This document shows, one piece after another, positions 10,765 to 13,400 of a stretch of DNA of 13,807 nt. The position numbers and the translations under genes are program-made. This stretch comes from Candidatus Micrarchaeota archaeon (GTDB lineage: Archaea > B1Sed10-29 > B47-G15): contig QMVG01000012.1 in assembly GCA_003660975.1 (NCBI GenBank), positions 1 to 13,807 on the forward strand, read 5' to 3'. Each line of letters begins with the position of its first letter. Positions within the stretch are counted from its first letter, which is position 1. The notes under the pieces were generated by a model. It was not told where the DNA came from. It did no database searches and saw only the letters and a list, made by a program, of their open reading frames with translations.

Positions 10765-10911
10765 ATGGCGAAGCGAGCGTTGATCACGGGCATCACAGGA
10801 CAGGATGGCTCCTATCTAGCCGAGCTGCTGTTGGCCAAAGGCTATGAGGTCCATGGGCTCATCCGCCGGACGGGCACTCCGGCTCGGAGTCGCAGTGCGG
10901 CGGTCGGTTGA
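10765..10911 (+). pseudogene. gmd: gmd 5' stub no. 1 (35 gmd-homologous codons plus a 13-codon tail)
   Basis: [57 protein letters not shown] at 10752-10757. Too short for the ORF track. Confidence 0.92.
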
Positions 10912-10955
10912 GTAGGATAGAGGTGTGCATCGGTTGAATCGAGGAGTGATGTGTT

Positions 10956-11255
10956 ATGACCGTCAAGGAGAAGATCGAGCGGCTCAAGCGCGAGAAGACC
11001 ACGCATTCCACTGAGGAGCTGGACCGTCTTGGCTGGGCCCGCTATGAGGAAATCAAACAGGAGCTGGAGGCTAAACATCACGGTGAGTACGTCGTGATCG
11101 AGGTGGACAGCGGGGACTATTTTGTGGGAAAGACCGCCGAGGAGGCCTTTCAGCAAGCTGAAAAGATCCATCCCGACAAGGCTTTCTGCCTGATCCGCGT
11201 TGGATATAAGGCGGTGCATAAGCTGAAGCGCCATGATCCAAGGATATGTGACTGA
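10956..11255 (+). CDS. DUF5678-like small protein (putative partner of the downstream protease)
   Basis: LEAKHHGEYVVIEVDSGDYFVGKTAEEAFQQAEKIHPDKAFCLIRVG fits the small alpha/beta family often found upstream of retropepsin-like genes. An RBS-like GAGGAG lies upstream, and the ORF overlaps the next one. Confidence 0.7.
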   Translation: MTVKEKIERLKREKTTHSTEELDRLGWARYEEIKQELEAKHHGEYVVIEVDSGDYFVGKTAEEAFQQAEKIHPDKAFCLIRVGYKAVHKLKRHDPRICD

Positions 11256-11601
11256 GGCACTGGATCCGATAATTGAAATAGGACTCAAGCGAGGGGAAGC
11301 CACGGAGTTCATTCCAGCGGTCATTGATACTGGGTTCAGCGGTCAGCTGTGTCTATCTAAGCGATATGAGGACAAGATCAAGATGGTGTTTCACCATGTT
11401 GAGCGCTATGAGTTGGCCAATAGTGAGGTTGTCGTCATGGATGTGTTTCGGGGAACCATCCTGTTCGGCGGACGTGCCCATGTGGTGGACCTGATTTTTA
11501 CGAACTCGCAGGACACGTTGATTGGAGCCTCGCTTCTGAAGGACTATAGGCTAGCGATCGATTATCCTAGACGCGTTGTCGAAGTGGAGAGGCAGATCTG
11601 A
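11233..11601 (+). CDS. Clan AA (retropepsin-like) aspartic protease, AF_0612-like
   Basis: 122 aa with catalytic VIDTGFSG, flap-like YELANSE, and TLIGASLLKDYRLAIDY. Confidence 0.88.
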   Translation: MIQGYVTEALDPIIEIGLKRGEATEFIPAVIDTGFSGQLCLSKRYEDKIKMVFHHVERYELANSEVVVMDVFRGTILFGGRAHVVDLIFTNSQDTLIGASLLKDYRLAIDYPRRVVEVERQI

Positions 11602-11632
11602 GAAGGTGAGCTTGATCTGAAGGAGGGACAGG

Positions 11633-11746
11633 GTGAAAAGAGCGCTGATCACAGGGATTACCGGACAAGATGGCTCCTATTTAGCGGAACTACTGCTCGC
11701 TAAAGGCTACGAGGTGCATGGGCTCATTCGGCTAAACCAGGACTAG
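11633..11746 (+). pseudogene. gmd: gmd 5' stub no. 2 (33 gmd-homologous codons plus a 4-codon tail)
   Basis: GTG start, [46 protein letters not shown] at 11621-11626. Confidence 0.92.
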
Positions 11747-11762
11747 ATATACATGATGGCAG

Positions 11763-12044
11763 ATGACAAATAATAAGGCTATAGACCTACAAAAGCCGAT
11801 TGAGTTCAGCTCCCATGCCCGAGAGAAGATGCTGGATCGTGGAGCTACAGAAAGCGAAGTCAAAGCAGCCATTCGCACTGGGAGCCCTGAGCCGGCACGT
11901 AAAGGACGGCTCATGTTCCGGAAGAACTTCACCTTTAACGGACACTGGCGTGGTAAGCACTATGCTGTCAAACAAGTGGTTCCTGTCGTTGCGGAAGAGC
12001 CTAACAGGCTGGTTGTGGTGACGGTGTTTGTATACTATTTCTAA
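11763..12044 (+). CDS. DUF4258-family protein (putative RelE-like ribonuclease toxin)
   Basis: IEFSSHAREKMLDRGATESEVKAAIRTG...LVVVTVFVYY matches the FSxHAxxxMxxR...VVTV pattern. Confidence 0.82.
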   Translation: MTNNKAIDLQKPIEFSSHAREKMLDRGATESEVKAAIRTGSPEPARKGRLMFRKNFTFNGHWRGKHYAVKQVVPVVAEEPNRLVVVTVFVYYF

Positions 12045-12059
12045 GGGAGGTGAGAAAAC

Positions 12060-12281
12060 ATGGAGATTGTCTATGATCCGTCCGTTGACGCCCTAACCAT
12101 CCGGTTTGTTAAAGAGAGGGTAGAGTGTGAGGTGATCCGCCTTAACGATCAGGTGGCCGTGGACATCGGACCAGGAGAACGCATTGTAGCGATCGAGGTG
12201 CTAGATGCGAGTGAGTTGGTCCCAGGGATTAAGGAGGGAAAGGTCTCCTTGAAAAACCTTGCTCTCGCTGCAGAAAGCTGA
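12060..12281 (+). CDS. DUF2283-family protein (putative antitoxin)
   Basis: MEIVYDPSVDALTIRF...VAVDIGPGERIVAIEVLDAS matches YDxxxDALYI...D.....IVGIEILDAS. Strong RBS GGAGGT. Confidence 0.85.
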   Translation: MEIVYDPSVDALTIRFVKERVECEVIRLNDQVAVDIGPGERIVAIEVLDASELVPGIKEGKVSLKNLALAAES

Positions 12282-12314
12282 GGATGTTTTATCTCACTGG
12301 GGGAGAGAGAAACC

Positions 12315-13400
12315 ATGAAGAAAGCATTGATCACGGGAATAACCGGCCAGGACGGTTCCTATTTAGCTGAGCTCTTGCTGGCCAAGGGCTATGAAGTCCA
12401 CGGGCTCATCCGCCGGGCCAGCACCTTCAATACCGACCGGATCGATCATATCTATCAGGATCCCCATGAGCCCGGCGCACGGCTTTTCCTGCATTATGGA
12501 GATCTGACCAACGGGGAGCAGTTGACAAACCTGATTTACAACGTGAAGCCGGATGAGGTCTATCATCTCGGAGCACAGAGCCACGTCCGGGTGAGCTTTG
12601 ACATGCCTGAATACACTGGGGATGTTACCGGTTTGGGTACTACCAGGATCCTGGAGGCGATCCGTCGGAGCGGGATAAAAACAAAGTTCTATCAAGCTTC
12701 CAGCTCGGAGATGTTCGGCGCCGCTCCCCCGCCACAAAACGAGAACACGCCTTTCATGCCCCGCAGTCCCTATGCCTGCGCCAAGGTCTACGCCTACTGG
12801 ATGACGGTGAACTACCGCGAGGGTTACGGCCTGTTTGCCTGCAACGGCATCCTATTTAACCACGAGTCGCCCAGGCGTGGTGAAACCTTCGTCACCCGCA
12901 AGATCACGCGGGCCATTGCCAACATCATCGCGGGCAACCAGAAGAAACTCTATTTAGGGAACCTTAAAGCTAAGCGCGACTGGGGTTATGCCCCCGAGTA
13001 TGCCGAGGCAATGTGGCTCATGCTTCAACAAGAGAAACCTGATGATTACGTCATTGGAACGGGTGAGGCGCATTCTGTCCAGGAGTTTTTGGAAGAGGCC
13101 TTTGCCTACGTGGAGCTGGATTGGCAAGAATATGTGGAGATCGACCCCAGGTACTTCCGGCCCACCGAAGTAGAGGTTCTATTAGCAGATGCTACGAAGG
13201 CGAGGAGGGAGCTGGGCTGGGAACCCAAGATCACTTTTAGAGAACTGGTAAGGATCATGGTTGACGCCGACATGGAGGCCATCGGACTGACGCCACCGGG
13301 AGAGGGCAAGAAAATTTTGGAAGAAAAGTTCACGGGGTGGCATCAGTGGGATAACAGCGTCAAAGCTGTCTATGAAAATGTGCGACGAGGGTTAGAATAG
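12315..13400 (+). CDS. gmd: GDP-mannose 4,6-dehydratase
   Basis: [69 protein letters not shown]. Full length, 361 aa. Confidence 0.98.

Follow-up and report, generated by a model that had tools for sequence, protein, structure and literature searches.

The start of gmd, the gene encoding GDP-mannose 4,6-dehydratase, occurs three times in a 13,807-nt stretch of DNA (hereafter the window) deposited as contig QMVG01000012.1 of assembly GCA_003660975.1 under Candidatus Micrarchaeota archaeon. Two truncated copies, referred to as stubs, and one intact gene bracket two pairs of small genes, both predicted from their sequences to be addiction-type, toxin-antitoxin (TA)-like modules. Judging from their substitutions, the three copies are the starts of different functional gmd alleles, each shaped as a working start in a separate lineage, and not the products of duplication in place. 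The same modules are found recombined in relatives, the stubs end at scattered codons, and a natural hybrid joins the first stub to gmd in register. Recombination by the host itself, and not a dedicated integrase, probably produced the array, which lies where a variable polysaccharide gene cluster has its border.

Architecture of the array

A repeat finder delimited a 108-nt unit in three copies (10770-10877, 11635-11742 and 12317-12424), of which the second and third are 74 and 81% identical to the first. The spacings of 865 and then 682 nt, together with tblastn and Pfam searches, bear out the arrangement described in an earlier note on this DNA (the original prediction). When the first 50 residues of intact Gmd were used as the tblastn query, matches were recovered at 10771-10878 (33/36 aa, E 3e-17) and 11633-11731 (31/33 aa, E 5e-16). 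Stub 1 encodes Gmd residues ~1-34/37 (10768-10877) followed by an unrelated tail of 11-14 residues, and its open reading frame (ORF) matches the Pfam family GDP_Man_Dehyd (E 1.6e-13). Stub 2 encodes residues 1-33 (homology to 11731-11734) followed by 4 unrelated residues. The intact gene covers the full profile (E 6.5e-146), and gmd function is not lost despite the array.

Alignment of the three copies is limited to the part from about the start codon through codons 33-37, and the sequences upstream do not align. The prediction had included a ribosome-binding site in the repeat. A Shine-Dalgarno-like leader does precede every copy, but each copy has its own, different one, and the repeat therefore consists of the coding part only. 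The stubs end 14-45 nt upstream of the cargo start, and about 30 nt separate a cargo stop from the following gmd start. An imperfect palindrome (10863-10903; 19-nt arms, 79% complementary, 3-nt loop) is situated exactly where stub 1 loses its similarity to gmd. It folds no better than shuffled sequences and may be due to chance or be the trace of a fold-back at an illegitimate joint.

Assessed as putative type II TA modules, both cargo pairs consist of two small, adjacent or overlapping, co-oriented genes (Table 1). The domain names proposed for cargo 2 hold, since its DUF4258 and DUF2283 proteins score above the Pfam cutoffs. Those proposed for cargo 1, DUF5678 and a clan AA aspartic protease (TIGR03698, E 1.1e-13, 51.4 bits against a cutoff of 57.35), correspond to matches below the cutoffs; gene B has no Pfam match, and its start is overlapped by the 3' end of gene A. 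No literature was found that names DUF4258 together with DUF2283 or confirms them as a TA pair. Profile searches found no transposase or integrase domains in the ORFs of 10765-13400. In addition, a promoter and terminator scan gave nothing above shuffles on the plus strand, with no terminator-like site within the array, and no Rfam family was matched in the window or in the related contigs L118, L116 and L198 described below.

Related arrays and the positions of stub ends

On the metagenome contig L118, the gene order is a glycosyltransferase, stub A (gmd codons 1-46), DUF4258, DUF2283, stub B (codons 1-78, with its start codon changed from ATG to ATA), an antitoxin, a PIN gene and intact gmd. 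This is the stub/DUF4258/DUF2283 layout of the window with one extra cassette to the right, next to the intact gene. The window at 11590-12330 and L118 at 6170-6960 are 84% identical from the stub through DUF4258/DUF2283 (orthologs at 6376-6657 and 6673-6894) into the following gmd start. The extra cassette recurs in G041, a Bipolaricaulota metagenome-assembled genome (MAG), where contig C1 (L116) at 5960-6960 is 82% identical to L118 at 6900-8030 from the gmd fragment through the antitoxin/PIN pair into the following gmd start. The order on C1 is a gmd fragment (residues ~36-69), the antitoxin/PIN pair, a gmd stub (1-68/71) with an internal stop and changes at conserved residues, a Phd/RelE pair and further TA pairs. 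The intact gmd of G041 is located on another contig (C72), directly after a glycosyltransferase and without stubs. In a second Bipolaricaulota MAG, G153, contig C28 (L198) carries cargo 1 of the window (gene A at 5737-6018, with 39 synonymous and 19 nonsynonymous differences in 92 codons; gene B at 6015-6374), a gmd stub of ~42-47 codons after it, further repeats and a transposase-like fragment at the contig end; intact gmd, with no stub, lies on a separate contig (C60). On the high-GC contig L162, gmd is preceded by a methyltransferase gene and this in turn by a stub (1-56) that is decayed and frameshifted and retains its leader.

Discrete modules with a gmd start on their right, as the prediction had pictured them, are thus recurrent: cargo 2 in L118, cargo 1 in G153 and the PIN pair in L118 and G041. 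The proposed order, with the oldest module on the left and the newest beside the intact gene, fits the position of the extra cassette in L118 and the window-type residues of stub B. The prediction further regarded the modules as non-autonomous, site-specific cassettes of an integron- or satellite-like kind, which enter gmd at codons 33-35 through a recombinase acting in trans and each bring a replacement 5' end. The stubs of the window do end within a few codons of each other (33 and 34-37), and the cassettes are compact, with boundaries at ORF ends. Across eight stubs and fragments, however, the ends fall at codons 33, 34-37, 42-47, 46, 56, 63-69, 68-71 and 78, an outcome that the prediction itself had named as counting against a single attachment position and that already weakens the model. 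The same cargo may follow different left stub ends (33 vs 46; 63-69 vs 78). Nor is gmd a dedicated target. On L198 a unit made of a methyltransferase 3' end and a GT2 5' end is repeated three to four times at 71-83% identity (Table 1), and its copies bracket a nucleotidyltransferase/HEPN pair, an antitoxin-like gene and a DUF5678-like/protease pair, the target being intergenic. An rmlD-like stub of the same kind is present in the window. The recurrence of the stub-plus-module pattern at these other targets supports the host-recombination reading.

Traces of a site-specific enzyme were sought at several levels. No tyrosine (PF00589) or serine (PF00239) recombinase was found on any array contig (the window's contig C12 of bin G000, G041 C1 and G153 C28), all of which are short, and no intI or attI lies next to the array on these contigs. 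As the genomes are incomplete, a trans-acting recombinase may have escaped the search. Other contigs of G000, G041 and G153 carry 2-3 PF00589 genes per genome (in G000 on C22, C124 and C14); PF00239 is matched once in G041 but not in G000 or G153 as far as these incomplete genomes extend, the window being probably mis-binned in G000. Folded as single-stranded DNA, seven junction and repeat stretches gave z values of -0.96 to 1.28 against shuffles and thus no attC-like hairpins, and the cassette borders showed no terminal inverted repeats. A constant insertion position with an identical attachment core on both sides was likewise not found: the ends are scattered, and the longest identical run between any two gmd copies is 11-15 nt and lies at different places, with no 31-mer in common. 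In a natural hybrid, described below, the joint falls at codon 21, within the repeat, and not where the repeat ends. Taken together, a site-specific system at gmd is rather improbable.

Two known systems nevertheless resemble the array in outline. Chromosomal integron arrays are tandem series of co-oriented compact cassettes, many of them TA pairs, split by a repeated element. The arrays described here share the co-oriented compact cassettes (0.6-0.9 kb), the abundance of TA pairs and the repeated separator, but no intI gene, attI or attC-type palindromes were found in them, and what is repeated is a host gene's coding start. Integrative islands and satellites that target a gene end, for instance that of a tRNA or tmRNA gene, supply a replacement end and leave tandem partial-gene repeats; they use an integrase and a fixed att core, which lies at one position. 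In both systems insertion restores the gene, partial copies are displaced and units accrete in tandem, whereas here the ends are scattered and neither an integrase nor a core is seen.

The arrangement is also rare at gmd, and a wide occurrence there is not supported. No stub was found at 80 reference-genome gmd loci; seven of them have a second match at 45-65%, and the one that was inspected (L100) is a full 324-aa paralog. Among 80 metagenome loci, two carry a stub (L118 and L162). L169 and L190 were rejected as stub loci, the former being a 3'-end frameshift and the latter two full genes. In the phylum of G041, 184 genomes were searched and ten match the first 82 residues, of which two (G041 and G153) show stubs, short matches in G125, G188 and G202 being left out. 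The intact gmd loci of G041, G153, G226 and G097 are single-copy and have no stub. Short database proteins matching stub 1 (7488 of 8000 scored candidates, 26-84 aa) were rejected as a count of stubs: of 33 inspected on contigs of at least 10 kb, many end in an out-of-frame gmd translation, i.e., are frameshifted gene calls, and others are partial genes at contig ends. Protein catalogues may therefore mislead stub counts through frameshifted gmd calls. A shared leader motif as a mark of cassette-borne copies was also rejected, just one pair exceeding the shuffled controls.

Besides the gmd arrays, a dense one-strand TA array occupies positions 1-4679 of C43 (L202), another contig of the bin. 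It comprises a DUF2283/DUF4258 pair (59 and 70% identical to those of the window), three DUF433 pairs, HicAB and a PIN pair, and contains a 191-nt direct repeat (1-191 and 1362-1552, 92% identical) as well as 7-nt periodic spacers. Such intergenic tracts, 70-280 nt long with a strict 7-nt period (units start with GT and are then variable), separate TA pairs every ~1-1.3 kb (Table 1). They resemble the heptanucleotide STRR repeats of cyanobacteria. As candidate cassette borders they were discarded, being present in G041 C1, C43 and L118 but absent beside the cassettes of the window. Among 19 candidates for other short diverged direct repeats in the bin, most proved to be internal repeats of large surface proteins or paralogs.

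Allelic origin of the stubs and the role of recombination

Over codons 4-33 the three copies of the window are 76-83% identical. Stub 1 and the gene differ at 15 nucleotides, stub 2 and the gene at 22, and the two stubs at 17, and all of these differences are synonymous. Were single-base changes to strike these codons at random, about 26% would be synonymous, which gives P ~1e-9 to 1e-13 under neutral decay and excludes that a duplicate has decayed neutrally. All comparisons show synonymous sites close to saturation, even that with the gmd of an unrelated high-GC contig (72-83% identity), and codons 4-33 are nearly invariant across all functional Gmd proteins compared.

Constraint of this kind would also follow from selection on the stubs where they now lie, if they are translated as leader ORFs or peptides and the module downstream depends on them for its expression. 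Each stub of the window has a start codon and a Shine-Dalgarno-like leader and ends shortly before its cargo, no plus-strand terminator-like site interrupts the array, and stub 2 and L118 stub A, both left of orthologous cargo, differ by 18 synonymous and 3 nonsynonymous codons. However, L118 stub B has lost its start codon, the G041 stub has an internal stop and changed conserved residues, and neither lengths nor tails of the stubs are conserved. Translational coupling, moreover, would not constrain the amino-acid sequence, and with codons 4-33 near-invariant in functional Gmd, few nonsynonymous changes are expected if the stubs were functional until recently. Selection in place is therefore very unlikely to account for them.

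A more conventional route would be classical insertion with long target duplication, in which the copies are identical at birth and gmd or a stub is later overwritten by foreign alleles during cluster exchange. That restriction-modification (RM) gene complexes insert in this way was reportedly described by Nobusato et al. in 2000. In the examples given by Furuta, Abe and Kobayashi, RM units are inserted with target duplications of 46-423 bp, often spanning the translation start and leaving the gene intact; empty-site alleles exist, and a cycle of insertion, repeat use and release was hypothesised (Furuta et al., 2010; PMC2853133). The repeats of those cases differ little from one another or from the empty site (for example 45/46, 417/423), and the insertions are single (Furuta et al., 2010). 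In the parts of a later paper that bear on this mode, it is mentioned for RM systems only (Mruk and Kobayashi, 2013; PMC3874152). The likeness to the gmd arrays lies in a small selfish or addiction-type unit without a mobility gene, long direct repeats (here ~100-240 bp) and an intact target; the arrays differ in their TA-like cargo, in repeats that are 74-83% identical with synonymous differences only, and in tandem stacking. With regard to the features used by Furuta et al. (2010), the units are under 20 kb (865 and 682 nt), have no mobility genes and are flanked by direct repeats longer than 30 bp (97-108 nt). The repeats also correspond to a single-copy target in empty-site form, as seen in the stubless gmd of G041, G153, G226 and G097 and in the natural hybrid. 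Near-identical repeats of the local target are not found in the window (76-83%), whereas L162 and G041 C1 have them or nearly so.

Decay after a common origin is indeed visible in the relatives. The gmd pieces flanking the PIN pair of G041 differ by 1 synonymous and 8 nonsynonymous changes in 25 codons, and the stub of L162, with a frameshift, 17 nonsynonymous codons and a methyltransferase gene as cargo, is visibly a copy of its own gmd together with its ~60-nt leader. The 15-22 differences between stubs and gene in the window, however, include no nonsynonymous one. If the copies arose by duplication, both stubs must therefore be young and the functional copy must have been replaced twice by synonymous-saturated alleles. 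In addition, L118 stub B matches the window-type allele and not L118's own gmd, which fits displacement better. For the window, this classical form of insertion with long target duplication is accordingly considered unlikely.

The longer stubs point to a layered history. L118 stub B is flawless to codon 64, beyond which 7 of 14 residues are changed in a decayed tail that begins at codon 65; over codons 39-63 it has no nonsynonymous difference from the gmd of the window and 3 from L118's own gmd. Likewise, the G041 stub is 91% identical to the gmd of that genome over codons 4-33 (7 synonymous and 1 nonsynonymous difference) and 73% over codons 39-63 (7 synonymous and 9 nonsynonymous). The stubs are mosaics of a fresh 5' part and an old, decayed 3' tail, a structure expected from recurrent rounds of homologous exchange inside the stub. 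At four-fold sites the cargo is less diverged than gmd when both are compared in one genome pair (window and L118, 30/64 vs 87/132 sites differing, Fisher p 0.013; L118 and G041, 30/73 vs 84/126, p 0.0006), which suggests later exchange of modules. Sliding nucleotide identity along gmd in five genomes was uninformative, remaining at 63-87% throughout with no clear mosaic break.

Natural variants were obtained from public sequencing runs, all records being metagenome assemblies. The stretch or parts of it were found in 20 runs of 16 studies of hydrothermal-vent and marine-sediment samples, and contigs of four runs were aligned to the window. One run, X2, contains both the array and an alternative to it. 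Its array contig (1674 nt, depth 28.7) spans 10767-12440 with 5 differences, and a further Logan contig, aligned at a 90% likeness threshold, follows stub 1 and then continues in gmd (Table 1), confirming that a form joining the two exists. The joint skips 1547 nt, so that both cassettes are removed, and is carried by 1 contig with a depth of 20.3 and 62 nt on the shorter side. The skipped length equals the exact register from stub 1 to gmd. The copies have no 31-mer in common, and a graph artefact is therefore an unlikely source of the joint. A contig of run X3 covers 10765-12770 at ~97% (61 differences and 8 gaps over 2006 nt) and is unlike the window before 10765, and in one of run X4 the cassette is joined at 10871 to an SDR-like start that is different and degenerate. 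Evidence was taken only from the parts of the window that these runs cover. The array is thus stable across strains, its left flank has been exchanged, and an in-register recombinant of stub 1 and gmd exists.

These contigs bear on another concern, namely that several gmd loci of co-occurring strains were collapsed during assembly or binning. The window does come from a clearly mixed MAG (39-41% vs 49% GC), and the evidence is metagenomic throughout. However, identical runs of at most 15 nt are too short to cause a k-mer mis-join, the X2 and X3 contigs span stub 1, cargo 1, stub 2 and cargo 2 into gmd, and arrays of the same kind occur in the independent assemblies of L118, G041 and G153. A mis-assembly is therefore extremely improbable.

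How host recombination would have produced the array may be outlined as follows. Two-gene addiction-type modules would arrive on foreign DNA, accompanied by or adjacent to the opening 30-80 codons of a gmd allele. The modules in play would be the DUF4258/DUF2283 and DUF5678-like/clan AA protease pairs and, in relatives, PIN, RelE and HicAB pairs. The incoming DNA would be fixed by homology-guided, in-register exchange inside gmd, either through Campbell-type insertion (a single in-register crossover) of a circle carrying a gmd 5' copy, or through a one-sided homologous crossover on the right combined with an illegitimate joint on the left. By either route the downstream gene would stay complete, and the resident start would persist as a stub on the left side of the newly entered module. 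Repetition would stack stub, module, stub, module and gene, with the oldest on the left, and exchange between the repeats could remove modules again. Selection may act against loss of a TA pair, and recombinants in which the older modules survive would then be favoured. Retention by addiction has support in RM systems. The mode of entry, the travel of DNA between cells and any role of addiction are inferred.

Several observations weigh against this explanation. The copies share only 11-15 nt of uninterrupted identity. Such lengths are below what RecA-type recombination needs in model bacteria, and in-register exchange should be very rare. The junction between stub end and DUF4258 is unalignable between the window and L118 (10/36 positions) and the stub ends differ (33 vs 46), which is not what a cassette with a fixed stub tail predicts. 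The gmd starts to the right of common cargo are as diverged as the background (17/28 vs 17/26 four-fold sites), and divergence therefore gives no demonstration that cargo and gmd start were transferred together. Only the leaders of L118 gmd and the G041 stub are clearly alike (37/45; shuffled maximum 31). The arrays of G041 and G153 are on contigs other than that of the intact gmd and may not be at the gmd locus. The hybrid of run X2 is one Logan contig and could represent a related strain with a mosaic gmd. In addition, toxicity and addiction are putative for both cargo pairs.

A bolder proposal can be advanced only tentatively, as rather less probable than host recombination in general. TA mini-cassettes of this lineage would constitute a recombinase-free mobile class that finds its target by homology, with a spare start of 30-80 codons of a conserved host gene as the sole 'address'. 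They would enter that gene in new hosts in register without inactivation, stack, leave via the repeats and be held by addiction, and the spare start would stay functional because its 5' part would serve the host gene as working start after each entry.

For host recombination as such, a further analogue is available besides the RM units. Displacement arrays of the type VI secretion system (T6SS) and rhs loci were attributed to homology-facilitated illegitimate recombination, by which modules acquired earlier stay and are shifted outward, at times together with a displaced gene fragment, their persistence being ascribed to selection that acts on the gene retained (Kirchberger et al., 2017; PMC5361080). 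As in those rhs, contact-dependent inhibition (CDI) and T6SS arrays, modules gained horizontally in succession lie at the edge of a conserved gene, with a homologous anchor at one end and an illegitimate joint at the other. In the cases covered there, the 3' tips of toxin genes are displaced and the retained immunity genes are functionally tied to the toxin. In the gmd arrays, by contrast, the 5' starts of a housekeeping sugar-nucleotide gene are displaced in mirrored orientation, and the cargo has no known link to gmd. Both analogues, RM duplication and T6SS/rhs displacement, have been described without a dedicated enzyme.

The polysaccharide cluster, the source organism and implications

Every long ORF of the window is on the plus strand, and together they form a polysaccharide gene cluster with 39-47% GC in the middle and 51-60% GC in the flanks (Table 1). 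The stubs and cargo pairs are situated between the last glycosyltransferase gene and gmd. Directly 3' of gmd is a further pair, in which HicA_toxin is clearly matched (E 3.4e-13) and HicB_lk_antitox below the cutoff (E 1.3e-4). At the opposite border of the cluster there is a second zone of stub and remnants. An rmlD-like 5' stub (553-717, a 54-aa ORF) directly follows the UDP-glucose dehydrogenase gene and matches positions 1-47 of the 287 of RmlD_sub_bind (E 5.6e-9, 47 codons), next to a DUF433 fragment at 699-869 (E 4.3e-9). A HicB-like remnant at 1305-1514 has an internal stop and is 54% identical over 70 aa to the HicB-like protein at 13417. No intact rmlD-like gene is present within the window. 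To the left of the array, a 35-codon ORF without a family match (10644-10751) ends 13 nt upstream of stub 1; it may be a remnant of another module or a gene end, and other runs diverge from the window at 10731-10765.

Table 1. Positions of features in the window and, where indicated, in related contigs
Feature	Position	Strand	Remarks
Stub 1	10765..10911	+	48-aa ORF, ATG start 10765, stop 10911
Cargo 1 gene A, DUF5678-like small protein, 99 aa	10956..11255	+	Pfam DUF5678 E 0.0022, weak, below cutoff
Cargo 1 gene B, clan AA (DTGF) aspartic-protease-like, 122 aa	11233..11601	+	TIGR03698
Stub 2	11633..11746	+	37-aa ORF, GTG start 11633, stop 11746
Cargo 2 gene A, DUF4258 protein, 93 aa, putative toxin-like partner	11763..12044	+	Pfam DUF4258 29.7 bits, cutoff 25
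Cargo 2 gene B, DUF2283 protein, 73 aa	12060..12281	+	Pfam DUF2283 39.4 bits, cutoff 23
Intact gmd, GDP-mannose 4,6-dehydratase, 361 aa	12315..13400	+	
HicB-like/HicA pair directly 3' of gmd	13417..13807	+	HicB-like 13417-13644, HicA 13637-13807 (runs off contig)
Two sides of the in-register joint in run X2	10828..12376		stub 1 to 10828, then gmd from 12376
UDP-glucose dehydrogenase 3' end	2-556	+	
Second stub-plus-remnant zone, opposite cluster border	553..1514	+	Pfam, tblastn
Flippase-type gene	1731-3092	+	
GT4 glycosyltransferases	3139-4401, 8199-9350, 9353-10594	+	
Wzy-like gene	4584-5780	+	
Methyltransferase	6668-7174	+	
Sulfotransferase	7420-8202	+	
Methyltransferase/GT2 repeat copies, L198 (G153 C28)	2764-2916, 3457-3654, 4824-5097, 5484-5520, 6373-6626		
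7-nt tracts, L116 (G041 C1), examples	147-550, 1438-1591, 2491-2685, 3775-4109, 4943-5221, 5939-6085		
7-nt tracts, L118	9057-9188, 11812-11931		
7-nt tracts, L202 (C43)	111-242, 1483-1636, 4510-4660		

The window is the entire contig C12 (13.8 kb) of bin G000, a mixed bin of 130 contigs. The large contigs (39-41% GC) are archaeal in appearance and carry pilin genes of archaeal type as well as KaiC-like genes, whereas C12 has 49% GC and many short contigs, including C12, C43 and C32, range from 48 to 65% GC. The Gmd of the window is nearest to that of L118 (85%), followed by a Candidatus Bipolaricaulota MAG (82%) and then by many Anaerolineae. Orthologs of the cargo are present in two genomes of the phylum of that MAG, and C43 has 7-nt periodic spacers like those of the MAG. 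On the grounds of GC content, Gmd likeness, cargo orthologs and spacers, C12 is probably a mis-binned contig of a Bipolaricaulota-like bacterium, and the bin is therefore unusable in the search for a partner recombinase. The bin's own relatives (genomes of 0.3-2.1 Mb) offered no useful gmd loci and were dropped as context.

A second gmd-like gene of the bin encodes 776 aa on the minus strand of C32 (L203, 57% GC, 64-2394). Its product is interrupted after the conserved YQASSS motif by an insertion of ~430 residues and resumes at SEMFG. The insertion ends in HN and contains a LAGLIDADG-like block, and it looks like a candidate intein inside Gmd.

The literature searched yielded no account of TA modules with long target duplications on either side or of comparable tandem arrays, although Furuta et al. 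(2010) may present further cases in their supplementary figures. The gmd array is a real and unusual architecture, replicated in independent assemblies, and is best filed as a TA, tandem and diverged-repeat form of long-target-duplication or recombination-scar phenomena, not as a new integron-like system. In practical terms, stubs carry annotation as partial gmd genes, and the window sits in the bin of an unrelated organism.

How chromosomal TA modules move has long been unclear, because most of them have no mobility gene. The array shows how TA-like modules can enter a conserved gene without breaking it. Any genome can be screened for its signature, in which diverged copies of a host gene's start enclose a module, and this signature points to host recombination, not to a dedicated enzyme. 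If this signature proves general, it would extend the long-target-duplication mode from RM to TA systems and link that mode to the rhs/T6SS displacement arrays. It would also explain why short 5' gene fragments and TA pairs gather at the borders of variable polysaccharide clusters.

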